Positions 18,401 to 42,400 of a stretch of DNA of 64,000 bases are shown piece after piece; positions within the stretch are counted from its first letter, which is position 1; every line of letters starts with the position of its first letter. Source of the DNA: Heptranchias perlo (taxonomy: Eukaryota); the NCBI RefSeq assembly GCF_035084215.1, contig NC_090331.1:56730001-56794000 (forward strand). The letters run 5' to 3'. The position numbers and the translations under genes were made by a program. The notes beneath the pieces are model-generated. The model saw only the letters and a program-made list of their open reading frames with translations. It did no database searches and was not told the DNA's origin.

Positions 18401-21400
18401 AACAGACCATCCGGCCTAACTGATCTGTGCTGGTGTTTATGCTCCATACAAGCCTCCTCCCACCCTACTTCATCTAACCCAATCAACATATTCTTCTGTT
18501 GCTTTCTCCCTCATGTGCTTATCTAGCTTCCTCTTAAATGCATCTTTGCTATTCGCCTCAACTACTCCTTATAGTATTGAGTTCCACATTCTAACCGCTC
18601 TCTGGGTAAAGAAGTTTCTCCTGAATTCCCTATTGGATTTATCAGTGACTATCTTATATTTATGGCCCCTAGTTCTGGTCGCCCTTGCAAGTAGAAACAT
18701 CTTTTCTATGTCTACCCTATCAAACCCTTTCATAATCTTAAAGACCTCTATCAGGTCACCCCTCAGTCTTTACTTTTCTAGAGAAAGGAGCTCCAGCCTG
18801 TTCAATCTTTTCAGAAAGGTACATCCTCTCAGTTCTGGTATCATCCTTGGAAATCTTTCTTGCAGACCTTTTTGCTATACAAGGCTCAGTGCCATGTCAC
18901 ATGGTAACATTTACACACTCGTAGACCAGTGGAGCACCAAACAAAAATCATTTGGAATACAGCAAATGATAAACATAATTTATATACAAAGAGAGTACAC
19001 AGGAGCAAGAAAAATACTGGTATCTTCATTAAGAAATAAACTGACCTTTCACAGTCAAGACACCACTGCATTCATCGCTTCCTGCAGCATTCGTTGCTTT
19101 ACATGTATAACTGCCGGCATCTGACATTGTCAATGTATTTACTTTCAAATCACATGTATTATCTCCAAATGCAAGATGATATTTTTCTCCGTGTACAATC
19201 TCCTGTCCATCTTTGAACCAAGACATAGTAATAGGTGGTGATCCTGACACCTTGCACTCCATTTGGATGGGAGAAGCCAAGATACCATCCATTTTCTTTA
19301 ACTTGCTTGTAAATGTTGGTGGAATAATTCGATCTGTTTAAGTTACACCAATAAACCATGATTATAAAGAGATTTGAAAAAAATATTTTAAAATCCTGAA
19401 GAAAACAGTATGAAGAAGAAAAAGCAGTAAACCAAACCTAGAACGCTGACTGATGCTTTGCAGCTGCTGCTACCGACATTATTCTGGACTTCGAAAGCAT
19501 ATTCACCACTGTCTGCCTGCACTGCAGACAGAATTTTTAGTCTGGCAATTTTGTTTAGAAAGCTGATCCTATATTTTATGCCAGATGCTAACTCTTGACC
19601 ATCTTTCAACCATTTCGCTTTTAGTTCTGGTGTACCTGTAACAATGCATTCCAAAGTTGCTGGATCTCCCGCAGTTACACTGATAGATTCTGCTTTTTCC
19701 ACTATTGTGGCAGGTTCTATAAGAAAAAAACCTCCATTTACAAAATATTCTTGATAAACACTGGCAAATAAAATAATAGTCTGTAATCCTCTCAAATATG
19801 AATTAAATTCTATAAACATCTAGTATATTGATATTAGGTTACTGACCCAGAACTACTACAGTAGCAGTGCATTCTTGCATTCCAGCATCATTTTTGATTT
19901 GGCAAGTATACTTTCCAGCATGAACTGGTTCTAATTTTGCAATATGTAAAGTAACAATGTTTTGTTCATAGGTAATAGTCATGTACTCATTATCTTTCAC
20001 TTCTTCCTTTTCCTTGATCCATGTTACATTAATTGGTTCTGAGCCTTTAATGGTAGATTGTAAAGTTACAGACTCTCCAGGCACAGAAGAAATGTCTGAA
20101 AGTTTCTTCACAAATGCTGGTGGCTCTGAAGAATTAAAGAAATATTCCTTTCATGTGAAACATAACCTTAAAGAAATGTTTTCCTAAAATTATAACAACA
20201 GTAAAATTTAAATGTACAATTTGGAAAATTTACCAACCTTTTAGATTTAAGGTGCCAATACAATTGTCACTTCCCACATCATTCTTGGCCATGCACATGT
20301 ATTCCCCTCTGTCTGGCGTCTCTACTTTAAGAATATGAAGACCTGCTACATGGTTTTCATAAGTAATTTTATACTTTTTACTTGCTCGGATTTGCCTTTT
20401 GTCTTTATACCAGGTAACTTCAAAAGGAGATGTACCACTGAATTCACACTGCAGTATGACATCAGAGCCTTTCAGTACATCAACTGCCTCAAGTGTTTTA
20501 CTGAAAATAGGAGGTTCTGTAAGAAGATCATAATTTGTCTCATTTATGCATTCATGAAGAAAAGATACTTGCTTTATAACTTTGACAGACTTTTATATAT
20601 GCATCTGAAAAAAGCTACCTACCTTTGACTGCAACAGCTACACTGCAACTGACACTGCCAGCTTCATTTTGAGCTTCACAAATGTAATCACCGCTATCTT
20701 CCAAATCAGCATCAATAATTTCAAGAACTGCTACAGAATTATCAAAATGCATTTTGTATTTGTTACCAGCACTAATTTCAGCATCATTCTTGAACCATGA
20801 AACCTTGATTTCAGGCGTGCCAATCACTTTGCACTCAAAATGTGCTGATTCACCCTTCTTCAGTACTTTGGATGGTTCCAGCTTCTGAATGAAAGATGGG
20901 AGCTCTGGGAAACCAAAATAGAGTACATTTAGTGCCAGGGTTACAGGAATGTTACATTTTGGAATAATTGGAATTGTGAAATATGTGGAAAGAAGTGGAC
21001 AAAGTAAAAATTGCATAAGAGAATGTTATAAATTCTTTTAAAAAGACAAATTATAAATCAATTATAATTTTTTTAATGTTATAGATAATAAAAAGCATAC
21101 AATAGAATTGTTGTAATGAAGAGTATAAGATGATAATATATCCTTGAGGCAATGAAGAGTATAAGAAACTAATATAGAATTGATGTGATAAAGAATATAA
21201 GATAACATACAATTGATGTCATGATGAACACAATATGTTAACATAGAACACAGATAAGAAAGAAGATTCGAATATACTGAGAATACTCAGCAACTTAAAG
21301 ACATTAACAACAAATAAAAGACAAACAAGATGCTGATAACATATACCAACACAACATAAAAAATGCACACCTGTCACAAACAATTTTGCTGTGCAAGTAT

Positions 21401-24400
21401 CTGTGCCAACATCATTGGTGACGTGGCAAGTATAGTATCCTGTATTAGAATGTTTTACTGAGTACAGTTGTACAAAACTGGATGAACCTTCCGTCACAAT
21501 GCAACATGTAGCATCAGAATTTAGTTCCTTGTCATCCTTAAACCATTTGAAAGACAGGGGAGGTGTTCCTTTCACATCACTCTTGAACTGTACTGCAGAA
21601 TAGGGGGGCACCTCCTGTGACAATGGTTTTACTATAAATCTTGGTGGTTCTAAAATTCATTGAAGAAAAAATATATTTGTCGCAATAAAGAGCACATATA
21701 AAAAGATTCATCAACTTTTGTGTTATAAACTACATAACTAATAAATTCAGAGTAATTATTTCAAACTTTCAAGAAATTCTGGCAAGGTTAAAATATGATA
21801 TGACTGACAAGTACCATGTTAAGAAATTGAGCAGAAACAGTAAGACAATATTTCAAACCTTTCACAGTTAGTGTGCCACTGCATTCATCACTTCCTGCTA
21901 CATTTGATACTCTGCAAGTATAAATTCCACCATCTGCGATTTCTAGTTGATTAATCTCCAAAGATGAAGCGTTATCTCGCTGTGATAGTTTATATTTGTT
22001 ACTATCTGATATCTCTTTCCCATCCTTATACCAATCAATGCTCATTGGAAGAGAAGCAGATACTTTGCACTCCATGGACATGAAAGACCCTAATACAGAG
22101 CCCGTATCCTTTAATTTTTTCGTAAATGTTGGAGCAACTAATCGATCTGTACAATACAGAGCACAACCTGTAAGCTTAAAGTGTAAAAGTAGCCTAAAAC
22201 ACCTGCTTTGTTTTCATGCTTTAACTGCAATCCTTTTCACATCCAAATCTCTCAATACATTTAAAATACTAACCTAATACTGTCAAGGAAGCTTTGCAGC
22301 TGTCGACTCCAAACTCATTCTGGACCTCAAAAGTATATTCACCACTACTCGCCTTCTCTACGGATAGAATCTTTAGACTGGCCATGTTTTTCTCAAAGGT
22401 CAATTTGCATTTTCTGCTGGATGTGAGCTCCTTTCCATCCTTAAACCATTTAACTTTTAGGTCTGGTGTACCAGCTACAGTACATTCCAAAATTGCTGGA
22501 TTTCCTACAGTTACACTGCATGATTTTATTTCCTCAACAATTTTTGCAGATTCTGTTAAGAAAAAATACTCTGCTGAGTAATGTTGTCAGTATGTTTAAT
22601 ATTTTAATGTGGCCTTCTTTTTCACATTAGTATGATAAACAAATATGAATTTGGCAGTAACTGACTTTTACATGTTAGTCAATCATGTTTCCTACCAACC
22701 TGTTACTATCAACGTAGCAAAACATTTCTCAATCCCTGCATCATTTTTGGCCTGACAGATGTATTTCCCACCATGTTTTTCTTCAACAGTTGTAATTTGT
22801 AGGATAGAAATATTGTTTTCAAAAGAAATTGCTGTGTTATCATCTTCTTTGATATCATCATTATCTTTCATCCAACTTATCGATAAAGGTTGTGAGCCTT
22901 TTACAAGGCATTGAAATATAGTAGAATTTCCAGCAATTGTTGTAACATTTTCAATCTTCCTTATAAATGATGGGGGTTCTGGTTCAAGGTAAATAGGCAT
23001 ACAAATAAATATGAGTAATTTGCTCTGTCCTCTTTAATGATTATAATAAAATGGCAATACATACTGTATTTGGAACTATTCCCTAAAATGTCAACATTAC
23101 ACGTTAGCTGCTAAAACTGTGCTATGTGATGAAGGTAAAAGTATTTTCTTATTACAATGTAACTAACCTTTTAAATTGACACCACAACTGCAGGAGCAGC
23201 TTCCCACATCATTTGTTACTATGCATTTATAGTCACCGACGTCTGAAACATCCAACTTCAAAATATGAAGACTAACTAAAGAGTTCTTAGTGAGCATCTT
23301 GTATTTTTCACTAGATGGAATTTGTTTATTGTCCTTATACCACATAACGTCAAAGGGACCTGTGCCAGCCATCTCACATTCAAGAGTGACACCACTGGCT
23401 TTTACTACCTCAGCAGATTGAAGTTTCCTTCTAAAACTGGGAGGTTCTATAAAGTAATCACAATAAAGAAATCCAAATCAACCAAAAAGCAGAAACTAAC
23501 AGTATCCCTCCTCAAGAAACTAACATATATATTTTGTTACCAAATTAAAGAAGACATTATTACAGACCTTTAACTTCAACTTCACTGCTGCAGCTGTCAC
23601 TACCAGCTTCATTCCGTGCTTCACAGATGTAGCATGAACTGTCATCCAAAATAACATCAATAATCTCAAGAACTGCCACGGAACTATCAAATGACATCAT
23701 ACACTTGTCACTGGCTATAATTTCATGGCCGTTTTTGTACCAAGTAACTCTGATTTCAGGTGTGCCAGTTACAATGCACTCAAAACGTGCTGAGACTCCT
23801 TTCTTTAGTATTGTTGAAGAATCTAGCTTTTTAATGAAGCTAGGAGGTTCTAGAAGCCAAAATATTACAAACTTCAATATACATTTAAAGGATAATCAAA
23901 AGCAATTCAAACTAATATTTAGATATAAATAATTGGCTACATAACATTTACAGACTAAATTTATAATTTTTTTAAAAACTTAGTTTAAAACTCAAATAGA
24001 GCTCTGTGTATGGTAAAGTAAACTGCATTTCCTTTTTCATATGCTATCGGGTTCCGTAATTGCTGCCTCCACCAAAATAGTTCTTCCTTCCATAGGAGGG
24101 GTGGGGCATTGTCGGCTGTGAAAGTCCTCAAAATTGACATCATTATAAGTTTACGATCAGATGATACCAATCAATTTTAGTGAGACTGTTGGTTTTGCCA
24201 ATTCTTCTTTGAATGGAGACAGAATTCTCCACCACTACATGATGCTCCACCAAGCAGTTAATGATAAATCATCGAGTCTAACTGTGAGACCAGACTTGAA
24301 TGCCAGACGATTATCACTGCCCCCTCTCCCTGGTTGGGAGTGTGAAGTTCTACCACTAGAGTTCACCAACCATCAAATAAACAAATTGTTGTTTCCAAAC

Positions 24401-27400
24401 TTTTAAAATAGCAAAGCAGAGAAAACAGTTTTATATAAAATAGAACTGCAGCAAAAATACAGAAATGCACACCTTTAACAAACAATTTTGCAGAACAGGC
24501 ATCTGTGCCAACATCGTTGCTAACTTGGCAGGTGTAACTACCCGCATCAGATACTTTGGATGAAAACAGCTCTAACAAATATGTTGAGCCTTCATTCCAC
24601 ATAGAATATGTCACACCAGGCATCAATTCCCTGTTCTCTTTGAACCATTTTGTAGACAGTGGTGTGGTCCCTTTCACAACACTCCTAAACTGCACTGTAG
24701 AACCAAGTATAACATCCTGGGACATTATTTTGGCTGAAAAGCTTGGGGGCTCTAAAATTCACACAAAAAGAAAACATTTAATGAGCTCAGATGTACATAC
24801 AAGTTAGAAGAGCTGATCAGAGTAAAGACAACTTTATGAATAACACATGCTAACATATCCATTAAAAACCTAAGAACACTTAAGAAAATGAAGATAGAGA
24901 TGGCCTATCAGTTTTGGTTACTTCACTATCGCAGCAAAAACAAATAGAAACTGTTTGGCTAAGAAAACAAGTATTTGTTTATAGTACTGAAGAGAAAGAA
25001 ATATAGCAAAGCAATGTTTCAAACCTTTTACACTTAAGACAGCACTGCATTCATCCCTTCCTGCTGAATTTGCTGCTTTGCATGTGTAAATTCCACCGTC
25101 TGAAAAGTCTAACTCATTGACCTCTAAAGACACCATGTTGTCTTGAAATGACATCTTGTATTTGTTACTAGCTGATATTTCTCTGTCATCTTTATACCAA
25201 GAAATGCTCATTGGAATGGAACCAGAAAGTTTGCATTCCATTCGTACCAAAGATCCTAAAGTACTGCCCATTTCCTTTAGTTTTCTTGTAAACAATGGAG
25301 CAATTATTTGTTCTGTCCAATATAAAGAAAAAAAATCACAATACATCAATAAAAGTATTATAACTTTGTGATAAACTTTGGTTTTAAAATAAATGCTTGA
25401 TGAAATCAAAGCCATCGACACTAATTAATCACTGACCTATCACTGTCAAAGAAACATGGCAGCTGTTGGCTCCAAACTCATTCTGGACCTTAAAAGTATA
25501 GTCACCACTGTCAGCCATTTCAACAGAAAGAATTTTTAGACTGGCCACCTTATTCACAAAACTCATCTTATATTTTCTATTTGATTCCAGTTGCTTTCCA
25601 CTTTTGAACCATGCAACATTTAATTCTGGTGTACCAGCTACAGTACATTCCAAAATGGCTGGATTTCCTGCAGTCACTGTGAGTGGCTCAGTTTTCTCTA
25701 TAATATTCGCAGGTTCTGTGGGAAAAATTAGATATTTTACATCAGGAGAACTATGTAATATTTATGGTAGGATTGTTATTTTAAGAAAATAAATTTGGGG
25801 GCATGGACTGCACAACGGGTTTGATATCGCATGGACCTGGGTTCAAATCCAGTCAAGACAGCTGCAATAAAAATCTCATCTACATGCTTGCTGTAAGTGT
25901 TCCATGTGAAATTAGTTTGGGCAGTCTCAATATAGCTCCCAATGGGTTTGTGCATAAACTGTCTCTCAGTGGGCATTAAGTTAGAAATCTCATTCAGAGA
26001 CCTCGCAAAATAGATGGGGTGGGAAATGGGAAAATGACACACAGATACAGTGGAAATGCTCTTCTGAGGATGTGCAAGAGGCACATTTTTGGGGCAGAAT
26101 AGAGGGAGCTATACCCTGCATTTAACTGCCACACCGGAGTGCTTGATCCTGACAATGGTTGCACGACATGGAAAATGTCCCCTTTGTCAGTAATAGCATT
26201 CCTCACCTTGATGATCATAAATTAATTTAAAAACATTCAAATAATTTTACTGTGGAAAAGTAAATATTATGAAACAGAGATCAATAATTTGTGGACAATA
26301 CATATGCTCATTACTTCCTACTAACCCATTACGGTCAACGTGGCAAAACATTTTGCAGTTCCCGCATCATTCTTTGCCTGACAAATATAATTTCCACTGT
26401 GATTTTCTTCAACCTTAATAATCTGTAATGTGGCAACATTGTTTTCAAAGGACATTTTTACATTATCATCTTCTTTGACATGTTTGCCATCTTTCTTCCA
26501 GTTTGTAGATATAGGAACTGAGCCTTTTACAAGACATTGAAATACAGCAGAATTTCCAGAAAATACTGTTGCATTTTCTATTGTTTGTACGAAGGTTGGT
26601 CGCTCTAGTTTAAAGAGAATATACTCTGTTATAATTGACAATTATACAACCAATCTTCAATTATTGCAAATATTGTGCTTCAAGACATTCAATAACACCT
26701 AACAGGAAGATGACAACAAAGCAGATACCACACAACATCCAGGTAAAATCACTTACTAGAACTGGATTGTAACTGACCTTTCAAATTGACTGTAGAACTG
26801 CAGGAACAACATCCCACATCATTTTTTACTGTACACTTGTATTCACCAACATCTGAGCTATCAGACTTTAGAATGCAAAGACTGGCTAAAGAATTCTCAG
26901 AGACCATTTTGCATTTTTTACTGCGTCGAATTTGTTTATTGTCCTTATACCACATAACGTCAAAGGGACCTGAACCGGCCACCTCACATTCAAGTGTGAA
27001 ATCACTGGTTTTTACTACCTCAACTTGCTCAAGCTTCTTCGTAAATGTGGGAGGTTCTAAAGAGTAAACACATTAACATGGTTTACAAATCACAGCCACT
27101 AAATTCAATTTCTGCACAGTGTCTCCCAACAATAATCATTAACACCAAAAAATATTTCCGTGATCTTTAATTGAATGTGTGATGGCTAATCATGGACGAC
27201 AAACCAACACACAGATGTTTTCTCCTCCAGCTTATTATTTAATGCACATCAGTCAAATACTTCAACAAATACCATTCACATTTTTTCTTTTATACATAGC
27301 TACAATTTTCAATGGCATTATCAGCCCTCAACGTTAATAATTTAGCCTAGATGCACGTGACTTTAGCATGTAAAAAAGGAGGAATTTTAATTCCCCTGAT

Positions 27401-30400
27401 CAGCAGGAACAAAGAGGGGGAGCAGTTAAAACGGAGCGTCTCCATTTGCCGCTCTGTTCCCGTCACTTCCCTATTTTAGCACCGCTGGTTTTGGCGGCGG
27501 ATGTGGCGACCACTGGACTGCATCAGGAGCTGCACTAATAAATGCAAATCGGGGTCCCATAACGTACATGGAACGCAAGTGGCATTTTAACGTTCTCCTG
27601 AGCGAGATGGGCGGCACGGCTGCCCCGACAGGTAAAGTTGTCAGGGAGTCAGCGAGGGTACATTAAGAATGCATCCATAATGGGACCAGGAAGAGCACGA
27701 GAGCTACTCCGGACCCCACAGAGATATTCTGGGCCTCTATTGCTCTGGGCTTCCCCCCTCCTCAGTAATGAGACCCTCACAACACAGCACCACCAACCCC
27801 CACCCCACTCCCAGACTTACCTTGCTGCCGGCAGCCTTCTAGGTGCCAGAGCTTGGTCTTCAATCATTCCCCCCCCCCCCCCCCCCCCCGCTGCCAGCCA
27901 TCCCCCCAGCCAGCCAGCTGCCACTTTCGCTCGAAACAGATGAGCAGCTGAAAAGCGGCATTTAAATTAGGCCAAGCAGTTAATATCTGCCGGAGCCTCT
28001 GATGAAGACTCCTGCATGGCCTGGTCCTGCCAGCTTCCCACTGGAAATTAAAATCAGTCCTTAGGAGTCAACTTAAAAATGTACGAGTAAAATGTTTACA
28101 TTATGTTTCATAAATCAATTTGAGAGAAGGAGCTGGTGGCAAGTGAATAATAATTGTTATTAGCCAATTATAAAACAGCTATAAAACCAGGCTGATGAAG
28201 TCAAGGCTCCCAAATATTCTATAATTAAGCACAAGACACTTGCAACATTTTCGGAAAGACCCATTAGCTTCTGATGGAAAATTTAACTTGGAATTTTTAC
28301 ACACCTTTAACTGTAACTTTAATATCGCAAGATTCACTGCCAGCTTCATTTTGTGCTTTACAGGAATAATTCCCACTGTTATCCAGGCTTATATCAGCAA
28401 TCTCAAAGATTGCCACAGAATCAACAAATGACATTCTGTATTTTTCACTGGCTCTAATTTCACGATTATTGCTGAACCAAGTGATTTTGATTTCAGGTGT
28501 GCCAGTTACTTTGCACTCAAAATTTGCTGTCTCTCCTTTTTTAAATATTGCCGTAAGATCTAACTTCTTAATGAAATATGGAGGTTCTAGAGAAGAAAAT
28601 GTAGTAAATTTAAATATAAATGCAAAAGTCTGAAACAAACCCATACAACATAAAAAGGAACAATGAAATGCATGCAACATATAAAGGAATTAAGGAAGAC
28701 AACACACCACACAATAGCAACATCAAAAATAAGAAATAAGAGATAAGTATGTAACAATCCAAAGAAAAATAACTTTACAGACATGTAAACTTTTGAAACT
28801 GGAACACATCAGAATTTTAACTATGTTCCACAATGGTTTAAAAAGTGAACCTAAAATGCACACCTTTGATAAATAGTCTTGTCGTACAAGTGGCGCTGCC
28901 AACCTTGTTGCTGACTTCACAAGTATAGTCACCCATGTCAGAAACTTTAGCTGAAAACAACTCTAGTAAACTTGTTGAACCTTCACTTAAAATGAAACAA
29001 TCAGCTCCAGACATCAGTTCCCTGCCATCCTTCAGCCATTTTATAGATAGTGGAGCAGTTCCTTTCACAACACTTCTAAACTGCACTGCGGAACCAGGTA
29101 GACTTTCCTGGGCTACGGGTTTTTCTATAAAACTTGGTGGCTCTAAAAGTCAGGTGAAAAAAAAATAGAATTGGATCCCTGTAGGACTTAATTTACAATG
29201 TGTAAGATATCAACAAAAATAAAATGGCAGAGCTAAAATTAGAACTTACTATAAATTGCATAACAAATTTTAAACACTATGTAGTGATCCTTTTTAGGGC
29301 AACAAGCAAAAATCAGAAACTGCTGAATAAGTGCAAATTATATGCAAAAGCTATAGTAGGAACTGAAACAAAGCAAGCTCATCTTTCAAACCTGTTATAT
29401 TTAAGATACCACTGCATTCATCCATTCCTGCTGAATTGGTTGCTTTGCAAATATAAGTTCCATGATCTGAAATCTCCAGTTGATTAACTTCCAAAGTTGT
29501 TTTGCTATCTTGACATAATACTTTGTATTTTTCACTAGTTGTTATTATTTTGTAATCTTTAAACCATGAAAAGCTCATTGGAAGAGAACCAGAAACTTTG
29601 CATTCCATATGTATGAAAGATCCTAAAATACTGTCCATTTTCCGTAATTTTCTTGTAAACAATGGGGGAATTATTTGATCTGTCCAAGATAAAGTGACAA
29701 AAGCACAGCCAATCAACTTAAACAGCAAATATTTGCAAGTGCTTTAAATGAATCAAATCCACTGTGATTGTTTACAATAAGACTTAATGATTTCAAAAGT
29801 GGAATTTTCATATTTATTAGGATGTTCTTTCTGAGACCATTCAAAACAAAACTTATTTTAAAACTCTCAACACAGCTAATCTGCCGACTCTCATCATTAC
29901 AACAAACAACTTGCATTTATATAGCAACGCGCGTCACAGGTGCGTAATCAAACAAAATCTGACATTGAGCCACGTAAGGAGATATTAAGACTGGTGACAT
30001 AGGTTTTAAGGAGCGTCTTAAAGGAGGAGAGAGAGGGAGAGAGATGGGAGTTTTAGGGAGGGAATTCCAGAGCTTAGGGCCTAGGCTGCTGAAGGCACGA
30101 CTGCCAATAATGAACATCATAACAATAAGAGACTTTATATATGTTTATGGTTGATGTGATCAGGATTTCTTTATTTGCAAGCAAAATTTTCAAATGACAC
30201 TGGATATTTAAATTAGTCAAATTCTAAATGCAAATAAAACACTAACCTAGTACTGTCAATGAAGCTTTACAACTGCTGGTTCCAAATTGATTCTTGACCT
30301 CAAAAGTGTATTCAGCACTATCATCATTGGAAACAGAAGGAATCTTTAGGCTGACCACATTATTCTCAAAGCTGATTTTGTGTTTTCTGCTAGGTACCAT

Positions 30401-33400
30401 TTCATTTCCATCCTTAAAACATTTAATTTTTAGTTCTGGTGTACCAGTTACAGTACATTCCAGATTTGCTGCATTTCCTGCGGTCACACTGAGTGACTGT
30501 GCTTGTTCTGTGATTTTTGCTGGTTCTATGAGAAAAAAAAATCTCTTCAATATATCAAAAGCAAAATACTGCGGATGCTGGAAATCTGAAATAAAAACAG
30601 AAATTGCTGGAAAAGCTCAGCAAGTGAGGCAGCGTCTGTGGAGGAAGAAACAAAGTCAATGTTTCAGGTCGAAGACCTTTCATCAGAATTGGAAGATGTT
30701 AAAGTTTTTGAGCAGGTACAGAGCCAGGGAAAGGGGAGGAAAGGACAAAAGGGAAGGTCTGTGATAGGGTAGTGGGCAAGAGTGATTAAATGTCAAAAGG
30801 GATGATGGTGCGAGGCAAGGAAGGTGGTAATGGGACAGGTTCAGAAACAAAAGATTGGTCAAGAGTAGCTGTAAATGGCAACAGCAGAACCATTACCAGC
30901 AGTTGCTGTCTGAAAAAATGGAAGCAGTGGTTATGAACTGAAGTTATTGAAATCAATGTTGAGTCCAGAAGGTTGTAAAATGCCTAATCGAAAGATGAGG
31001 TGCTGTTCCTCGAGCTTACATTGAGCTTCATTGGAACAGTGTAAGAGGCCGAGGACAGAGAGGTCAGTGTGGGAGCGGGGCGGGGAATTAAAATGCCAAG
31101 CGACCGGCAGGTCAGGGTCACGCTTGTGGACAGAATGGAGATGTTCAGGAAAGCACAACCAATCTGTGTTTGGTCTCCCCAATGTAGAGGAGACCACATT
31201 GTGAGCAGAGAATACAGTATACTAAATTGAAAGAAGTACAAGTAAATCGCTGTTTCAACTGGAAGGATTGTCTGGGGACCTGGACGATGGTACATCTGCA
31301 ATATATTACTGGTATGAATCTCATTTTAGTTGATACATGATATAGAATATGAACCCACTTGTAACTAGCAAAAACTTTGGAGTGGAGAGTACTAATAAGC
31401 TAACAAATATCCTACTGACCTGCTACCGACAATGTGGCAACACACTTCTCAGTTCCTGCATCATTCTTGACCTGACACGTATATTTCCCAGCATGATTTT
31501 CTCCAACAGCATTTATTTGAAGAGTAGCAATATTATTCTCAAAAGACAATGTAATATTACCATCTTCTTGGATATCATCTTTATCTTTCATCCAAGTTAC
31601 ATACATAGGCTTTGAGCCTCTCAATAGACTTTGGAATACAATAGAATTCCCTGACAATGTTGTTATATTTTCAATCTTCTTTATAAATCCTGGGGGTTCT
31701 AGTTTAAAACAAATGATAATATGAATATTTGAACATTTTTCATAGCTCTTCATTATGGTTCTTAAAATGCTTTAATGTAAAAGGTAGAAGGCTTCCACAT
31801 ATAGCTTGGCAATGCATTCTCTAATGGAGAACATAGATAACAAAAATGGCACTATAAATAGTGGAAGAAAAATAGGTTCTGACCGCACACTATAACTGAC
31901 CTTTCAAACTGACTATAGAAGTGCAGGTACAACTCCCCACATCATTTTTTACAGTGCACTTGTATTCGCCAACATCTGATACATCAGAGTTTAGAATGCA
32001 AATGATAGCTAAAGAATTCTCAGAGATCATTTTGTATTTTTTGCTGCGTCGAATTTGTTTATTGTCCTTATACCACATAACGTCAAAGGGACCTGTGCCA
32101 GCCACCTCACATTCAAGAGTGATATCACTGGTTTTAACTATCTCAGCAGATTGAAGTTTCCTTCTAAAACTGGGAGGTTCTATAAAGTAATCACAATAAA
32201 GAAATCCAAATCAACCAAAAAGCAGAAACTAACAGTATCCCTCCTCAAGAAACTAACATATATATTTTGTTACCAAATTAAAGAAGACATTATTACAGAC
32301 CTTTAACTTCAACTTCACTGCTGCAGCTGTCACTACCAGCTTCATTCCGTGCTTCACAGATGTAGCATGAACTGTCATCCAAAATAACATCAATAATCTC
32401 AAGAACTGCCACGGAACTATCAAATGACATCATACACTTGTCACTGGCTATAATTTCATGGCTGTTTTTGTACCAAGTAATTCTGATTTCAGGTGTGCCA
32501 GTTACAATGCACTCAAAACGTGCTGAGACTCCTTTCTTTAGTATTGTTGAAGAATCTAGCTTTTTAATGAAACGAGGAGGTTCTAGAAGCCAAAATATTA
32601 CAAACTTCAATATACGTTTAAAGGATAATCAAAAGCAATTCAAACTAATATTTAGATATAAATAATTGGCTACATAACATTTACAGACTAAATTTATAAT
32701 TTTTTTAAAAACTTAGTTTAAAACTCAAATAGAGCTCTGTGTATGGTAAAGTAAACTGCATTTCCTTTTTCATATGCTATCGGGTTCCGTAATTGCTGCC
32801 TCCACCAAAATAGTTCTTCCTTCCATAGGAGGGGTGGGGCATTGTCGGCTGTGAAAGTCCTCAAAATTGACATCATTATAAGTTTACGATCAGATGATAC
32901 CAATCAATTTTAGTGAGACTGTTGGTTTTGCCAATTCTTCTTTGAATGGAGACAGAATTCTCCACCACTACATGATGCTCCACCAAGCAGTTAATGATAA
33001 ATCATCGAGTCTAACTGTGAGACCAGACTTGAATGCCAGACGATTATCACTGCCCCCTCTCCCTGGTTGGGAGTGTGAAGTTCTACCACTAGAGTTCACC
33101 AACCATCAAATAAACAAATTGTTGTTTCCAAACTTTTAAAATAGCAAAGCAGAGAAAACAGTTTTATATAAAATAGAACTGCAGCAAAAATACAGAAATG
33201 CACACCTTTAACAAACAATTTTGCAGAACAGGCATCTGTGCCAACATCGTTGCTAACTTGGCAGGTGTAACTACCCGCATCAGATACTTTGGATGAAAAC
33301 AGCTCTAACAAATATGTTGAGCCTTCATTCCACATAGAATATGTCACACCAGGCATCAATTCCCTGTTCTCTTTGAACCATTTTGTAGACAGTGGTGTGG

Positions 33401-36400
33401 TCCCTTTCACAACACTCCTAAACTGCACTGTAGAACCAAGTATAACATCCTGGGACATTATTTTGGCTGAAAAGCTTGGGGGCTCTAAAATTCACACAAA
33501 AAGAAAACATTTAATGAGCTCAGATGTATATACAAGTTAGAAGAGCTGATCAGAGTAAAGACAACTTTATGAATAACACATGCTAACATATCCATTAAAA
33601 ACCTAAGAACACTTAAGAAAATGAAGATAGAGATGGCCTATCAGTTTTGGTTACTTCACTATCGCAGCAAAAACAAATAGAAACTGTTTGGCTAAGAAAA
33701 CAAGTATTTGTTTATAGTACTGAAGAGAAAGAAATATAGCAAAGCAATGTTTCAAACCTTTTACACTTAAGACAGCACTGCATTCATCCCTTCCTGCTGA
33801 ATTTGCTGCTTTGCATGTGTAAATTCCACCGTCTGAAAAGTCTAACTCATTGACCTCTAAAGACACCATGTTGTCTTGAAATGACATCTTGTATTTGTTA
33901 CTAGCTGATATTTCTCTGTCATCTTTATACCAAGAAATGCTCATTGGAATGGAACCAGAAAGTTTGCATTCCATTCGTACCAAAGATCCTAAAGTACTGC
34001 CCATTTCCTTTAGTTTTCTTGTAAACAATGGAGCAATTATTTGTTCTGTCCAATATAAAGAAAAAAATCACAATACATCAATAAAAGTATTATAACTTTG
34101 TGATAAACTTTGGTTTTAAAATAAATGCTTGATGAAATCAAAGCCATCGACACTAATTAATCACTGACCTATCACTGTCAAAGAAACATGGCAGCTGTTG
34201 GCTCCAAACTCATTCTGGACCTTAAAAGTATAGTCACCACTGTCAGCCATTTCAACAGAAAGAATTTTTAGACTGGCCACCTTATTCACAAAACTCATCT
34301 TATATTTTCTATTTGATTCCAGTTGCTTTCCACTTTTGAACCATGCAACATTTAATTCTGGTGTACCAGCTACAGTACATTCCAAAATGGCTGGATTTCC
34401 TGCAGTCACTGTGAGTGGCTCAGTTTTCTCTATAATATTCGCAGGTTCTGTGGGAAAAATTAGATATTTTACATCAGGAGAACTATGTAATATTTATGGT
34501 AGGATTGTTATTTTAAGAAAATAAATTTGGGGGCATGGACTGCACAACGGGTTTGATATCGCATGGACCTGGGTTCAAATCCAGTCAAGACAGCTGCAAT
34601 AAAAATCTCATCTACATGCTTGCTGTAAGTGTTCCATGTGAAATTAGTTTGGGCAGTCTCAATATAGCTCCCAATGGGTTTGTGCATAAACTGTCTCTCA
34701 GTGGGCATTAAGTTAGAAATCTCATTCAGAGACCTCACAAAATAGATGGGGAGGGAAATGGGAAAATGACACACAGATACAGTGGAAATGCTCTTCTGAG
34801 GATGTGCAAGAGGCATATTTTTGGGGCAGAATAGAGGGAGCTATACCCTGCATTTAACTGCCACACCGGAGTGCTTGATCCTGACAATGGTTGCACGACA
34901 TGGAAAATGTCCCCTTTGTCAGTAATAGCATTCCTCACCTTGATGATCATAAATTAATTTAAAAACATTCAAATAATTTTACTGTGGAAAAGTAAATATT
35001 ATGAAACAGAGATCAATAATTTGTGGACAATACATATGCTCATTACTTCCTACTAACCCATTACGGTCAACGTGGCAAAACATTTTGCAGTTCCCGCATC
35101 ATTCTTTGCCTGACAAATATAATTTCCACTGTGATTTTCTTCAACCTTAATAATCTGTAATGTGGCAACATTGTTTTCAAAGGACATTTTTACATTATCA
35201 TCTTCTTTGACATGTTTGCCATCTTTCTTCCAGTTTGTAGATATAGGAACTGAGCCTTTTACAAGACATTGAAATACAGCAGAATTTCCAGAAAATACTG
35301 TTGCATTTTCTATTGTTTGTACGAAGGTTGGTCGCTCTAGTTTAAAGAGAATATACTCTGTTATAATTGACAATTATACAACCAATCTTCAATTATTGCA
35401 AATATTGTGCTTCAAGACATTCAATAACACCTAACAGGAAGATGACAACAAAGCAGATACCACACAACATCCAGGTAAAATCACTTACTAGAACTGGATT
35501 GTAACTGACCTTTCAAATTGACTGTAGAACTGCAGGAACAACATCCCACATCATTTTTTACTGTACACTTGTATTCACCAACATCTGAGCTATCAGACTT
35601 TAGAATGCAAAGACTGGCTAAAGAATTCTCAGAGACCATTTTGTATTTTTTACTGCGTCGAATTTGTTTATTGTCCTTATACCACATAACGTCAAAGGGA
35701 CCTGAACCGGCCACCTCACATTCAAGTGTGAAATCACTGGTTTTTACTACCTCAACTTGCTCAAGCTTCTTCGTAAATGTGGGAGGTTCTAAAGAGTAAA
35801 CACATTAACATGGTTTACAAATCGCAGCCACTAAATTCAATTTCTGCACAGTGACTCCCGACTATAATCACTGGCATCAAAAAATATTTCCGTGATCTTT
35901 AATTGAATGTGTGATGGCTAATCATGGACGACAAACCAACACACAGATGTTTTCTTCTACAGCTTATTATTTAATGCACATCAGTCAAATACTTTAATAA
36001 ATACCCTTCACATTTTTTCTTTCATACATAGCTACAATTTTCAATGGCATTATCTGCCCTCAATGTTAATTAATTAGCCGAGGTGCACATGACTTCAGCA
36101 TATAAAATAAAGGGATGAGGAATTTTAACTCTCCCTTATCAGCAGGAATGAAGAGGGGGTGCAGATAAAATGGAGTGGCTCCATTTCCTGCTCTGTTCCC
36201 GCCAATTCCCCATTTTAACACCGTTAGTTTTGGCGGCAGATGAGGCGACCACTGGACTGCGGCAGGATCCGCACTAATAAATGGAAATCGGGGTCGCAAT
36301 TCGTACATGGGACACATGTGGCATTTTAATGTTCTCCTGTTTCAGCTGTCCGCCAGTTAAAGTTGTAGGGAAGCTAATGAGGCCTTCGTGATCAATTAAA

Positions 36401-39400
36401 AATCTTTCCTTTGTGGGATCAGGAGGAGCTCAGGTGGTACTCCGGGCCCCGCAAAGAAAGTCTCGGCTTTTCTGCCCCGGGCTTACCCTCTCCCCACCCA
36501 TGCAACGCTTGCAAAACTTCCCCTCCCAGACTAACCTTACTGCCAGCATCCTTCTCTTGGTGCTAGAGGGCAGCCTACATTCACTCCCCATCACCCTGGC
36601 AAGCCAGCTGCTGCTTTCTGCTCGAAATGGACAAGCAATTGAATGGCGGCATTCGAATAGGGCCGAGCAGTTAAAATCTGCCGGGGCCTCCAATGAAGAC
36701 TCCTGCACAGTCTGGTCCTGCCAGCTTCCCGCCGGTAATTAAAAGTTTAAAATGTACGAGTAAAATGTTTGCATTATGTTTCATAAATCAATTTGAGAGA
36801 AGGAGCTGGTGGCAAGTGAATAATAATTGTTATTAGCCAATTATAAAACAGCTATAAAACCAGGCTGATGAAGTCAAGGCTCCCAAATATTCTATAATTA
36901 AGCACCAGACACTTGCAACATTTTCGGAAAGACCCATTAGCTTCTGATGGAAAATTTAACTTGGAATTTTTACACACCTTTAACTGTAACTTTAATATCG
37001 CAAGATTCACTGCCAGCTTCATTTTGTGCTTTACAGGAATAATTCCCACTGTCATCCAGGCTTATATCAGCAATCTCAAAGATTGCCACAGAATCAACAA
37101 ATGACATTCTGTATTTTTCACTGGCTCTAATTTCACGATTATTGCTGAACCAAGTGATTTTGATTTCAGGTGTGCCAGTTACTTTGCACTCAAAACTCGC
37201 TGTCTCTCCTTTTTTAAATATTGCCGTAAGATCTAACTTCTTAATGAAATATGGAGGTTCTAGAGAAGAAAATGTAGTAAATTTAATTATAAATGCAAAA
37301 GTCTGAAACAAACCCATACAACATAAAAAGGAACAATGAAATGCATGCAACATATAAAGGAATTAAGGAAGACAACACACCACACAATAGCAACATCAAA
37401 AATAAGAAATAAGAGATAAGTATGTAACAATCCAAAGAAAAATAACTTTACAGACATGTAAACTTTTGAAACTGGAACACATCAGAATTTTAACTATGTT
37501 CCACAATGGTTTAAAAAGTGAACCTAAAATGCACACCTTTGATAAATAGTCTTGTCGTACAAGTGGTGCTGCCAACCTTGTTGCTGACTTCACAAGTATA
37601 GTCACCCATGTCAGAAACTTTAGCTGAAAACAACTCTAGTAAACTTGTTGAACCTTCACTTAAAATGAAACAATCAGCTCCAGACATCAGTTCCCTGCCA
37701 TCCTTCAGCCATTTTATAGATAGTGGAGCAGTTCCTTTCACAACACTTCTAAACTGCACTGCGGAACCAGGTAGACTTTCCTGGGCTACGGGTTTTTCTA
37801 TAAAACTTGGTGGCTCTAAAAGTCAGGTGAAAAAAAAATAGAATTGGATCCCTGTAGGACTTAATTTACAATGTGTAAGATATCAACAAAAATAAAATGG
37901 CAGAGCTAAAATTAGAACTTACTATAAATTGCATAACAAATTTTAAACACTATGTAGTGATCCTTTTTAGGGCAACAAGCAAAAATCAGAAACTGCTGAA
38001 TAAGTGCAAATTATATGCAAAAGCTATAGTAGGAACTGAAACAAAGCAAGCTCATCTTTCAAACCTGTTATATTTAAGATACCACTGCATTCATCCATTC
38101 CTGCTGAATTGGTTGCTTTGCAAATATAAGTTCCATGATCTGAAATCTCCAGTTGATTAACTTCCAAAGTTGTTTTGCTATCTTGACATGATACTTTGTA
38201 TTTTTCACTAGTTGTTATTATTTTGTAATCTTTAAACCATGAAAAGCTCATTGGAAGAGAACCAGAAACTTTGCATTCCATATGTATGAAAGATCCTAAA
38301 ATACTGTCCATTTTCCGTAATTTTCTTGTAAACAATGGGGGAATTATTTGATCTGTCCAAGATAAAGTGACAAAAGCACAGCCAATCAACTTAAACAGCA
38401 AATATTTGCAAGTGCTTTAAATGAATCAAATCCACTGTGATTGTTTACAATAAGACTTAATGATTTCAAAAGTGGAATTTTCATATTTATTAGGATGTTC
38501 TTTCTGAGACCATTCAAAACAAAACTTATTTTAAAACTCTCAACACAGCCAATCTGGCTACTCTCATCATTACAACAAACAACCTGCATTTATATAGCGC
38601 CTTTAATGTCGAACGTACCAAGGCGATTCACAGGAGCGTTGTCAAATAAAATTGCCATTGAGCCAAATAAGGAGATATTAATACAGGTGACCGAAAGCTT
38701 GGTCGAAGAATTAGGATTTTAGGAGGGTCTTAAAGGAGGAGAGAGAGTTAGAGCGGCGGAGTGGTTTAGGGAGGGAATTCCAGAACTTAGGGCCTAGGCT
38801 GCTGAAGGCACGGCCACTAATAAGATCAATAATGAATATTATGACAATAAGAACCTTTATATATATTTATGGTTGATGTGATCAGGATTTCTTTATTTGC
38901 AAGCAAAATTTTCAAATGACACTGGATATTTAAATTAGTCAAATTCTAAATGCAAATAAAACACTAACCTAATACTGTCAATGAAGCTTTACAGCTGCTG
39001 GTTCCAAATTGATTCTTGACCTCAAAAGTGTATTCAGCACTATCATCATTGGAAACAGAAGGAATCTTTAGGCTGACCATATTATTCTCAAAGCTGATTT
39101 TGTGTTTTCTGCTAGGTACCATTTCATTTCCATCCTTAAAACATTTAACTTTTAGTTCTGGTGTACCAGTTACAGTACATTCCAGATTTGCTGCATTTCC
39201 TGCGGTCACACTGAGTGACTGTGCTTGTTCTGTGATTTTTGCTGGTTCTATGAGAAAAAAAAATCTCTTCAATATACTACGGATATGAATCAATAGTTAG
39301 TTGATACATGATAAAGAATATGAACCCACTTGTAACTAGCAAAAACTTTGGAGTGGAGGGTACTATAAAGCTAACCAATATCCTACTGACCTGCTACTGA

Positions 39401-42400
39401 CAAAGTGGCAAAACACTTCTCAGTTCCTGCGTCATTCTTGACCTGACACATATATTTCCCAGCATGATTTTCTTCAACAGCATTTATTTGAAGAGTAGCA
39501 ATATTATTCTCAAAAGACAATGTAATATTACCATCTTCTTGGATATCATCTTTATCTTTCATCCAAGTTACATACATAGGCTTTGAGCCTCTCAATAGAC
39601 TTTGGAATACAATAGAATTCCCTGACAATGTTGTTATATTTTCAAGCTTCTTTATAAATCCTGGGGGTTCTAGTTTAAAACAAATGATAATGTGAATATT
39701 TGAATATATTTCACAGTTTTTCATTATGGTTCTTAAAACGCTTTAATATTCCACAAATAGCTTAGCAATGCATTCTCTAATGAGGAACACAGATAACTAA
39801 AATGGCACTATAAACAGTGGAAGAAAAATAGGTTCTGACAACACTCTATAACTGACCTTTCAAACTGACTGCAGAACTACAGGAACAACTCCCCACATCA
39901 TTTTTTACTGTGCACTTGTATTCGCCAACATCTGATACATCAGATTTTAGAATGCAAAGACTGGCTAAAGAAGTCTCAGAGATCATTCTGTATTTTTTGC
40001 TGCGTCGAATTTGTTTATTGTCCTTATACCACATAACGTCAAAGGGACCTGTACCGGCCACCTCACATTCAAGAGTGATATCACTGGTTTTAACTACCTC
40101 AACCGGTTCAAGTTTCTTTATAAATGTGGGAGGTTCTAAAGAGCAAACACAACAATGTGGCTTAGGAAACAATCAAATGCCAAAAGCTAAATCTCTCTTT
40201 AAGCATATCTGATATTATTTTACACACCTTTAACCTGGACCACAAAGTTGCAGCTATTACCACCAGCTTCATTTTGCGCTTCACAGGAATAATCCCCACT
40301 ATCTTCCACAATTACATCAGCAACCTCGAGAACAGCCAATGAGTTTTGAAATGATATGCTGTATTTGTCACTGGTTCTAATATCATGGTTATTTCTGTAC
40401 CATGTGACTGTGATTTCAGGTGTACCAGTTACTTTGCTCTCAAAATGTGCAAATTCTCCCTGTTTCAGTACTGTTGAAGGAGATGGCTTCTTAACAAAAC
40501 TTGGAGGTTCTGGGAAAATTAAATGCAATAAACCTGAATACTGCAAGTACAAAGTAAAGTTAGGGCACATGAAGAATAGATTAGTAGACAAGTGACTAAA
40601 AGACACCTTCAGATAAATGTTACTCAACTTTGATTTTAAGAAAACTAAGGAAGAAATATAACACTGTTAAAAATGTTGCACAAAAATCATTTCTAATAAG
40701 ATTTACAAGAAAAGCAAACCTTTGATGAATACTTCTGCAGTACTGGTGATTGAACCAGCTTCATTGCTGAGTTGGCAGTTGTAAACACCAGCGTCAGAAA
40801 CTTTAGTTGACATTAGCTCAAAGAAGTGTGCTGCTTCTTCATTCCAAATGGAACATCTTGCACCAGGCTTCAATTCCCTATTATCTTTGAACCACTTGAC
40901 AGACAGTGGAAGAGTTCCTTTCACAACACTCTTAAACTGCAGTGTCGATCCTTGTGCAATTCCTTGGGACATTGGTTTTTCTATAAAGTTCGGTGATTCT
41001 ATAATTCATTTAAGAAAATGTTTTTTTATTAAGGTCAGATAAAGTAAATATAAAAATAATACTTCTAAAATTAATTACATAACTCTAGCATTTTACTACT
41101 GATCACAACATGTTAAAATATTTCAGGAAGTGGAAATACATACAATTTATCTAGGCATTCTACTGTTGCAGAAAAGAAGAAATAGAAAATGTTACAACTG
41201 GAAAATCAGCATTTGATGCGTCTTAAAATAGAAGTGGATTGGAGTAAAGAGATCTTCAAACCTTTTAAAGTTAAGAATCCACTGCATTCGCTACTTCCAG
41301 CAGTATTTGTTGCTTTGCAAGAGTAATTTCCACCATCTGTGATTTCAAGTTCTTTAATCTCCAAAAATGCTGTATTTTCTTCAAATGATATTTTGTATTT
41401 GTCACTAGTTATTATCTCTTTGTTATCTTTATACCAAGAAATGCTGATTGGAAGAGAACCAGATACTTTGCACTCCATGTGCATCAAAGTCCCCAATATG
41501 TTATTCATTTTCTTTAAACTTCTTGTAAAGGATGGAGCAATTATTCGATCTGTCCAACACAGAACAACGAAAATAGTTTGTCAGCTAAAATATCAAAGGG
41601 GAGATTTAACTCACTCTACTCAGTGGAAACGAGGTGGTAATGTTGTTAAAATGGAGGTGCTGGACTTTCTGCTCCATTCCCACTCCACTATTATTTTTCC
41701 CGGGACCTTCTGCTTGGCGGCTGATGGGCACACCGGAAACAAGCAGGAGCCTCATTAATCTATGCAAACTGTGGCCTTATGTACGTCTTATGACATACTT
41801 AGGACTTTGATGCAATTTTATGGCCTACCACGCTGGACGTGTGCCTTGCATGCCTCTGCTCAGTAAGACCTGGTGGTACAGCAGAAAAGGCCCAAAAAGC
41901 TAAGTGTGAAAATTATTTTTATGGGGCCAGGAGGATCAATGGTGCTTCTCTGGGACTTCACACGAAGAAAGTAGGATGCTGCTGCACTGGGATCCCCCCC
42001 TCCACGATTATATCCTCCCCTCCGGTCCTACCTTTCTGCCGGTTAGGTCAGCCTACAGGCCACCTGACATTGCACTAGCCCTGAGCCAGCAAGCTGCAGT
42101 AGGACTGAGTGTAATGTATCCAAGTTTGCTGATGATACAAAGCTAGGTGGGAAAGTAAGCTGTGAGGAGGACAAAAAGAGTCTGCAAAGGGATATAGACA
42201 GGTTAAGTGAGTGGGCAAGAAGGTGGCAGATGGAGTATAATATGGGGAAATGTGAGGTTATTCACTTTGGTAGAAAGGATAGAAAAACAGAATATGTTTT
42301 AAATGGTGAGAAACTATTAAATGTTGGTGTCCAGGGAGACTTGGGTGTCCTGGTACAAGAAACACAAAAAGTTAGCAGGCAGGTTTTTGTGACTGGAAGG

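Follow-up and report, generated by a model that had tools for sequence, protein, structure and literature searches.

A block of 12 Ig exons, together with its introns, stands twice in tandem in the middle-Ig segment of a titin gene of elasmobranch type, encoded on the minus strand of the Heptranchias perlo DNA that we analysed (64,000 nucleotides, hereafter the window). Our results suggest that this is neither a recent event nor an assembly error but an old duplication whose copies gene conversion has kept alike, a reading to which we give a probability of roughly 0.7. Specifically, a single unequal crossover, joining B exons from 6-Ig super-repeats that lie two units apart, duplicated 12 exons at once, and the join is a chimeric exon that stays in frame. 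Short-tract nonallelic gene conversion between copies 8-9 kb apart may then have maintained near-identity over long unbroken blocks, introns as well, whereas pairing would have been interrupted at mobile elements, at a private insertion, and at the edge of the array, leaving these to diverge.

Architecture of the titin segment

The original prediction placed the repeat in the I-band Ig segment of titin, and structural matches bear this out: the best PDB match for the Ig segment is titin 3B43 (E 9e-104), and the unique segment of the N2A element matches titin 7NIP. The N2A element fixes the place of the repeat within titin. The super-repeats are orthologous to known titin, positioned between I27-29 and the 10-Ig repeat and N2A. 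The main features are as follows.

21371..59095, minus strand: eight 6-Ig super-repeats, SR1-SR8 (48 exons), of the middle-Ig segment
14827..20904, minus strand: single 10-Ig super-repeat, whose G-J domains match 10-Ig units of alligator, turtle, arowana, bichir, and elephant
14118..14389, minus strand: broken Ig exon equivalent to I78, with an in-frame stop (14333-14331) and its 3' end lost
3571..5806, minus strand: N2A element, seen as ORFs (a unique segment between domains that we take to be I80 and I81-I83)
32143..40100, minus strand: upstream copy (5' in the transcript), 7,958 bp, with the 3' part of SR4B, SR4C-F, SR5A-F, SR6A, the 5' part of SR6B, and introns
23410..32142, minus strand: downstream copy, 8,733 bp, with the 3' part of SR6B, SR6C-F, SR7A-F, SR8A, the 5' part of SR8B, and introns
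31901..32179, minus strand: chimeric junction exon SR6B, whose first ~34-43 nt and preceding intron match SR8B, the remainder following SR4B
32137..32145, unstranded: crossover interval of the unequal exchange, between the last SR8B-type site (32146) and the first SR4B-type site (32136)

The segment has a clear six-domain periodicity, with a mean identity of 63% at lag 6 vs 30% at lag 1 and 30-33% over lags 1-3; adjacent domains are at most 39% identical. Each of the 59 middle-segment exons examined is a multiple of 3 in length and free of stops, AG/GT ends flank all 26 exons from SR4A to SR8B, and each symmetric exon carries one I-set domain, detected by Pfam in the three Ig exons scanned (3/3).

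The duplication itself was recovered in two ways. Self-BLAST aligned 22690-30554 with 31410-39276 in a single long tandem match at an offset of ~8.7 kb, carried on by 31295-32584 vs 39266-40511, and global alignment of the two units gave 7,628 identical bases among 7,884 aligned (96.75%). Each unit comprises 11 whole exons and one split B exon, with introns likewise common to both, and encodes 3,372 nt, or 1,124 aa, in 12 I-set domains; the frame is kept and the splice sites are intact. The predicted in-frame addition of 12 domains, with exons and introns shared, is thus what the window contains. The 11 whole exon pairs share 97.5-100% of their DNA, vs mostly 62-78% for other super-repeat paralogues. 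Two points go beyond what had been predicted: identity is very uneven (divergence runs from 0.27% to 20.5%), and the junction exon is chimeric.

Such a chimeric Ig exon is the signature of unequal crossover in which paralogous exons, lying at a distance of two super-repeats, recombined. At informative sites in SR6B, the first 8 of 8 match SR8B, after which most match SR4B. Exon offset puts the outer ends of the units at 23404-23412 and 40093-40101, and the predicted ends of the duplication (23410, 32142/32143, and 40100) all lie inside the breakpoint intervals drawn from informative sites or offset. The breakpoint falls within exon SR6B, with no retroelement present, and the product is a full-length I-set domain (Pfam I-set, 72.9 bits). 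Placing SR6B residues 15-92 as sister of SR8B was rejected (p-AU 1.9e-5); pairing SR4B with SR6B, which the tree leaves as a polytomy, had a p-AU of 0.47. SR4B and SR6B differ at 8 of 78 residues, vs 14-16 of 78 between SR5B and its orthologues in Mustelus and Mobula.

Divergence between the copies

Divergence between the copies is a mosaic, ranging from 0.3-0.6% over kilobase blocks through 7-10% in unique intron to 13-20% in two intronic mobile elements. The zones, none of which is stranded, are as follows.

23410..27090 (pairing with ~32143-35822): homogenised block A, 10 mismatches in 3,680 bases
27091..27374: unique intron beside TE1, 23 mismatches in 284 bases
27376..28062: TE1 in the downstream copy, GC-rich, with 20-nt terminal inverted repeats (arms 27376-27395 and 28043-28062)
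36107..36742: TE1 twin at the matching intronic position of the upstream copy, with a deletion of one terminal repeat
28071..29870: homogenised block B, 10 mismatches in 1,800 bases
29894..30104: TE2, truncated 3' end of a retroelement, with a twin at ~38567-38826 sharing both of its ends; 28 mismatches in 220 bases plus indels
30556..31306: insertion of 751 bp present in the downstream copy alone, with an 8-bp target-site duplication on its flanks

The remaining zones carry 4/391, 19/451, 26/351 (edge), and 37/289 (TE2 and flank) mismatches. TE1, which appears to be MITE-like, has a GC content of 55% vs 34-36% in its flanks and differs from its twin at 126 of 615 bases. TE2 is presumably L2/CR1-like, and we take the private insertion to be Penelope-like; a Pfam search of the ORF in that insertion returned no family.

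This unevenness is not confined to mobile elements. Within unique intron alone, mismatches number 5 in 1,923 bases in block A vs 23/318 and 18/187 elsewhere (Fisher p about 1e-15 each). The longest run of matches is 1,207 bases, against a permutation mean of 184, and none of 10,000 permutations reached it; with both elements removed the mean rose to 355, and again none of 10,000 did. Divergence climbs toward insertions or indels and toward the edge of the array, although beside TE1 the climb is one-sided. In theory, conversion ends at insertions and large indels, as stated in the account of PMC3924837.

Purifying selection on the protein was considered as a source of the identity and rejected, because introns and 4-fold sites are as identical as coding sites. 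In block A, introns (5/1,923) and exons (5/1,723) match equally well, and between the copies only 3 of 404 4-fold sites differ. A second pattern in the locus gives an independent view of conversion: SR4 and SR5 share 91% identity in their B exons vs 70-78% in their A, C, D, E, and F exons, and this homogenisation is limited to the exon and about 30 nt.

The event would date to roughly 70-200 My ago on a crude internal clock (39 of 112 four-fold sites, JC 0.47, interval 0.32-0.65, set against a split of ~420 My taken from an abstract), which is qualitative only, since the epaulette-shark pedigree rate gave 5e7-2e8 generations, more than any plausible age. The pedigree rate was therefore set aside.

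Alternative explanations

Among the alternatives, a recent duplication fares best, although we consider it unlikely. In that case the duplication would be a few My old and specific to the lineage, and the diverged patches would be mobile elements that either mutate fast or were overwritten by other members of their genomic families. Blocks A and B do differ by only 0.27-0.56%, or 2-5 My on the internal clock, the greatest divergence lies within GC-rich repeats, and across the 11 whole exon pairs 14 codons differ nonsynonymously vs 6 synonymously, which looks unfiltered by selection. Yet intron free of repeats has diverged as well, there is no closer donor for the B-C intron within the locus, and whale shark has an equal number of units (PMC12241362). 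Nor can the divergence of TE1 be attributed to CpG decay, because only 18 of its 126 differences are CpG transitions and 54 are transversions.

It is quite improbable that the duplication is old and real but that consensus building or polishing during assembly produced the near-identity of its long blocks as an artefact. Identical runs of 912, 827, and 676 bases are indeed where reads cannot be assigned to either copy. Nevertheless, scattered private differences persist (10 in block A and 10 in block B), divergence grades upward near the elements and the edge, and the homogenisation of B exons at 86-91% shows old biological conversion.

The original prediction also proposed that the array may be variable in copy number; in an actively variable array, repeated unequal crossover, cycling between one and three copies, would have homogenised it. 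Blocks of kilobase length that are more than 99.4% identical, along with symmetric in-frame exons, would make any exchange viable, and copy number changes recurrently in human TTN and NEB repeats by the account in PMC9142044. However, cycling of this kind, with exchanges falling in blocks A and B, would wipe out the intervening TE1 island, which is 20% diverged, and the unit count equals that of whale shark. The survival of diverged islands argues against frequent expansion and contraction, and we regard such cycling as very improbable.

Finally, the divergence of block A (0.27%) resembles allelic diversity in a shark (pi of 0.002 in epaulette shark, as given in PMC10587355), but a false duplication, in which two haplotypes of a single-copy region were joined in tandem, is scarcely credible: alleles are not expected to differ by 20% over 615 bases or by 7-10% in unique intron, the 3' part of SR6B shows 15 mismatches to its twin over about 235 bases and keeps an intact frame, the window has no N, eight units are published for whale shark (PMC12241362), and the mosaic divergence and private 751-bp insertion together argue strongly against a haplotig, an artefact that the original prediction had named.

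Comparison with other cartilaginous fish

Whale shark titin has eight 6-Ig super-repeats plus a single 10-Ig one, whereas that of elephant shark contains six 6-Ig units (PMC12241362). Elephant-shark domains map one-to-one onto SR1, SR2, SR3A-B, SR5/7F, and SR8. The duplication accounts for the two extra units, raising their number in the middle-Ig segment from the six of elephant shark to eight, where we infer the SR4/6 part of the mapping. The duplication was predicted to be a lineage-specific lengthening of the spring. The lineage is probably that of sharks or elasmobranchs broadly rather than of the species, given the eight 6-Ig units of whale shark and the 7-20% divergence of unconverted patches. 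The match in unit count with whale shark may also be an independent gain.

Twin domains share 96-100% of their amino acids, vs 75-87% with Mustelus and Mobula, whose fragments cover one copy each. A search of one exon against proteins of 162-2,000 aa matched 3 of 37 candidates (Mobula, Mustelus, and Callorhinchus), again with one copy each. Among the matches listed for the Mobula fragment against 1,580-4,510 aa (best 120 of 414), Callorhinchus was the only cartilaginous-fish titin, and with the Callorhinchus region as query, proteins of 4,868-5,000 aa yielded 28 of 378 matches with no named shark. Searches of the 90% collection for lengths up to 5,000 aa turned up no shark or ray protein with both copies; the 50% representatives, with at least 150 unnamed matches at 23-37% mean identity, were left unused. 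Shark titin models may collapse or skip duplicated exons.

Domain trees covered classes A, B, C, and F. The window's domains fell outside Mobula plus Mustelus in classes A, B, and F, while class C was unresolved. We know of no accepted species tree that predicts this placement, which warns of rate artefacts.

Implications for the titin spring

The window appears to catch a mechanism by which the Ig spring of titin grows, in which one exon-to-exon unequal crossover adds two super-repeats. In the sole published account, by Hanashima et al. 2025, duplication proceeds in six-domain blocks with a transposon as the proposed trigger (PMC12241362); here, in contrast, the last gain came as a single event of 12 exons whose breakpoint sits within an exon. 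The word "conversion" appears nowhere in that text, and near-identical units are unmentioned. Our literature search did not find a single 12-exon event, a chimeric exon, or conversion in the Ig segment of titin.

Parallels exist elsewhere. As predicted, the near-identical repeat of human TTN lies in PEVK (exons 172-198 and 203-204, by the description in PMC9142044). Like the shark repeat, this block (exons 172-180, 181-189, 190-198, and 203-204) and the NEB triplicate are intragenic, multi-exon tandem repeats with introns, near-identical and in frame within a giant sarcomere gene. They differ in consisting of PEVK or nebulin sequence, whereas ours has two copies in the Ig segment, an exon-to-exon breakpoint, and an apparently old, mosaic history. 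The PEVK duplication is described as 1-3 My old and LINE-1-associated (PMC12241362, PMC6469411) and as copy-number variable (PMC9142044), and our unit of 8-8.7 kb is just below the 10-300 kb given there for segmental duplications. The red and green opsins of primates, as outlined in PMC3924837, are also an old tandem pair with homogenised introns and local divergence peaks, but their peak is a selected exon, while in titin divergence peaks at intronic mobile elements and at the array edge, and the two titin copies form parts of one reading frame. Near-identity of titin repeats need not mean recency.

An Ig domain contributes a contour length of ~4.5 nm. The 12 extra folded domains, about 50 nm of contour, would make a somewhat longer and softer spring in long skeletal-muscle isoforms. 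In elephant shark, most middle-Ig exons are included in skeletal isoforms and skipped in heart isoforms (PMC12241362). The mechanical effect is probably modest: for mice with nine Ig domains deleted, PMC4001778 describes the expected direct change in passive stress as minimal. Because twins lie 12 domains apart, neighbouring domains would stay dissimilar (less than 40% identical), which fits the idea, discussed in PMC12241362, that similar adjacent Ig domains are avoided.

More tentatively, the 12-exon duplication could be more than 100 My old and common to sharks, perhaps rays, with conversion keeping twins more than 99% identical in each species, intronic mobile elements acting as barriers, and occasional in-frame alleles gaining or losing 12 Ig domains. 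If duplication is old and conversion ongoing, such alleles would form a natural series for testing Ig number against titin slack length and stiffness.

That sharks have a longer spring has been published before, and the 6-Ig/10-Ig architecture is not new. The layout is that of whale shark, with three N-terminal Ig, eight 6-Ig, one 10-Ig, and two C-terminal Ig positions (PMC12241362), except that one C-terminal Ig exon is broken in the window.

Titin identity and gene layout

By sequence, the minus-strand gene in the window is part of titin. An exon query from the duplicated region had titin 3B43 as its top PDB entry (E 9e-104), and the N2A unique segment matched titin 7NIP. Among named proteins in the matches listed, the titin-like fragments nearest to one exon came from Mustelus (87%), Mobula (83%), and Callorhinchus (70%); in the class A tree, Callorhinchus fell outside the group holding the window's gene. 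These matches identify a cartilaginous fish and make an elasmobranch most likely. Together with exon mapping, these matches place the repeat inside the titin Ig spring, as originally predicted. Domain numbers (I27, I78, etc.) follow standard usage or PMC12241362.

63112-63390 and 61557-62120, minus strand: three N-terminal Ig domains
Minus strand: 48 exons forming eight 6-Ig super-repeats (SR1-SR8), each with exon classes A-F
Minus strand, past SR8: a single 10-Ig unit, then a broken Ig exon, a final Ig, and N2A

Origin of the duplication

The predicted 12-exon tandem duplication is real: 23410-32142 and 32143-40100 are identical at 7,628 of 7,884 aligned bases. The expected in-frame gain of 12 domains also held, with one unit comprising 12 exons and 1,124 aa, all 59 of 59 exons preserving frame without stops, canonical splice ends in all 26 exons from SR4A to SR8B, and 14 residue differences in total across the 11 whole exon pairs.

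The copies meet in a chimeric exon.

31901-32179, minus strand: junction exon SR6B, with an SR8B-like start and SR4B-like remainder

Its first informative sites (8/8) are of SR8B type and those thereafter mostly of SR4B type, with the switch located between 32146 and 32136; the preceding intron is identical to its SR8B counterpart (121/121 bases). A tree of residues 15-92 rejected SR6B as the sister of SR8B (p-AU 1.9e-5), and there is no mobile element at the breakpoint. This is the footprint expected when homologous exons lying two super-repeats from each other cross over unequally, an event that would have created SR6B and kept the frame by construction.

Elephant-shark domains map to SR1, SR2, SR3A-B, SR5/7F, and SR8 at 66-87%; we infer a link to SR4, which is absent from the elephant-shark fragments found. 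Without one unit the gene would have six 6-Ig repeats, and with it eight, the numbers given for elephant shark and whale shark, respectively, in PMC12241362, where the eight-unit architecture is already published. The likeness to whale shark is one of unit count rather than of breakpoint, and it would say nothing about age were the window itself whale-shark DNA. The shark repeat belongs to a known kind of event, the duplication of several exons within a giant sarcomere gene.

Probable gene conversion and age

Divergence between the copies is strikingly uneven. Two long blocks (23410..27090 and 28071..29870) carry 10/3,680 and 10/1,800 mismatches, and unique intron patches 23/318 and 18/187. 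TE1, a terminal-inverted-repeat element common to both copies, differs at 126/615 positions (CpG decay accounts for 18 of the 126), and TE2, a truncated retroelement that has the same two ends in each copy, at 28/220. A 751-bp insertion accompanied by a target-site duplication occurs in one copy only. Divergence rises as uninterrupted blocks shorten (0.27, 0.56, 1.0, and 4.2%), and identical runs far exceed random placement with or without the elements (0/10,000 permutations). Introns and four-fold sites match coding sites in homogeneity. A distant third TE1-family member (62-64%) lies at 41581-41812.

Such uneven divergence is the pattern expected of gene conversion, which acts on long homology and halts at insertions (PMC3924837); conversion would keep long blocks alike, and insertions would block it. 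The copies look young but are most likely old and conversion-maintained, a case for concerted evolution drawn from one sequence. No second species with both copies appeared among the shark and ray protein matches listed.

As an internal clock, we used SR5 versus SR8 (39/112 four-fold differences), separated by at least ~420 My since both have elephant-shark orthologues (split date from PMC6238376). Roughly, unconverted patches date to about 70-215 My and the blocks to 2-5 My, on a clock limited by the small number of sites, by conversion that may have touched its calibrators, and by the faster change of repeats. Dating by pedigree rate overshoots.

Copy-number variation of the repeat is plausible; frequent cycling is opposed by the intact TE1 island. 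That the duplication is old and real but its blocks were made near-identical by assembly consensus or polishing strikes us as improbable.

Besides the probable conversion between the copies, a second, separate conversion in six-exon register is visible in the B exons.

39857-40135, 35510-35788, 31901-32179, and 26778-27056: B exons of SR4, SR5, SR6, and SR7

These are 86-91% identical in that register (neighbouring classes, 70-78%), and the likeness ends ~30 nt beyond the exon. B domains of ray and houndshark share a clade with theirs, and the conversion may therefore be an old one. Literature searches, covering few subscription papers, found no paper describing conversion in the titin Ig segment; the word "conversion" is absent from the available text of PMC12241362, as are "concerted", "conversion", and "unequal" from that of PMC6469411.

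Likely consequences for the protein

Given the length of an Ig domain, twelve extra domains would make the tandem-Ig spring about 50 nm longer, less the contribution of one broken Ig exon. Skeletal muscle would probably be modestly softer as a result. In elephant shark, most of the middle-Ig segment is present in skeletal isoforms and skipped in heart isoforms (PMC12241362). For a mouse lacking nine Ig domains, minimal passive-stress change was expected; passive stress rose 30%, accompanied by altered splicing (PMC4001778).

The B domains are cysteine rich (5-7 Cys across SR4B-SR8B), and SR5B and SR7B (26778-27056) differ solely by Tyr/Cys. This may bear on how Ig unfolding is tuned by redox state.

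Other features of the locus

14118-14389, minus strand: I78-equivalent Ig exon with an in-frame stop, 3' end and donor gone
8440-12170, 16850-17980, 42100-44090, and 59800-60950: large decayed LINE-like retroelements in titin introns

Compared with the domain at this position in alligator, arowana, bichir, and elephant titin, the I78-equivalent shows 51-59% identity; it is probably a skipped pseudo-exon, one Ig lost that elephant shark and whale shark reportedly have. We take the retroelements to be LINE-like from reverse transcriptase- and endonuclease-like ORFs judged by eye; 42383-43400 and 59805-60845 form an inverted pair (88.5%). In a titin-like protein of the turtle Terrapene (P0004, residues ~2981-3165), the third 6-Ig unit apparently lacks E, with D directly before F, which may be an annotation gap.
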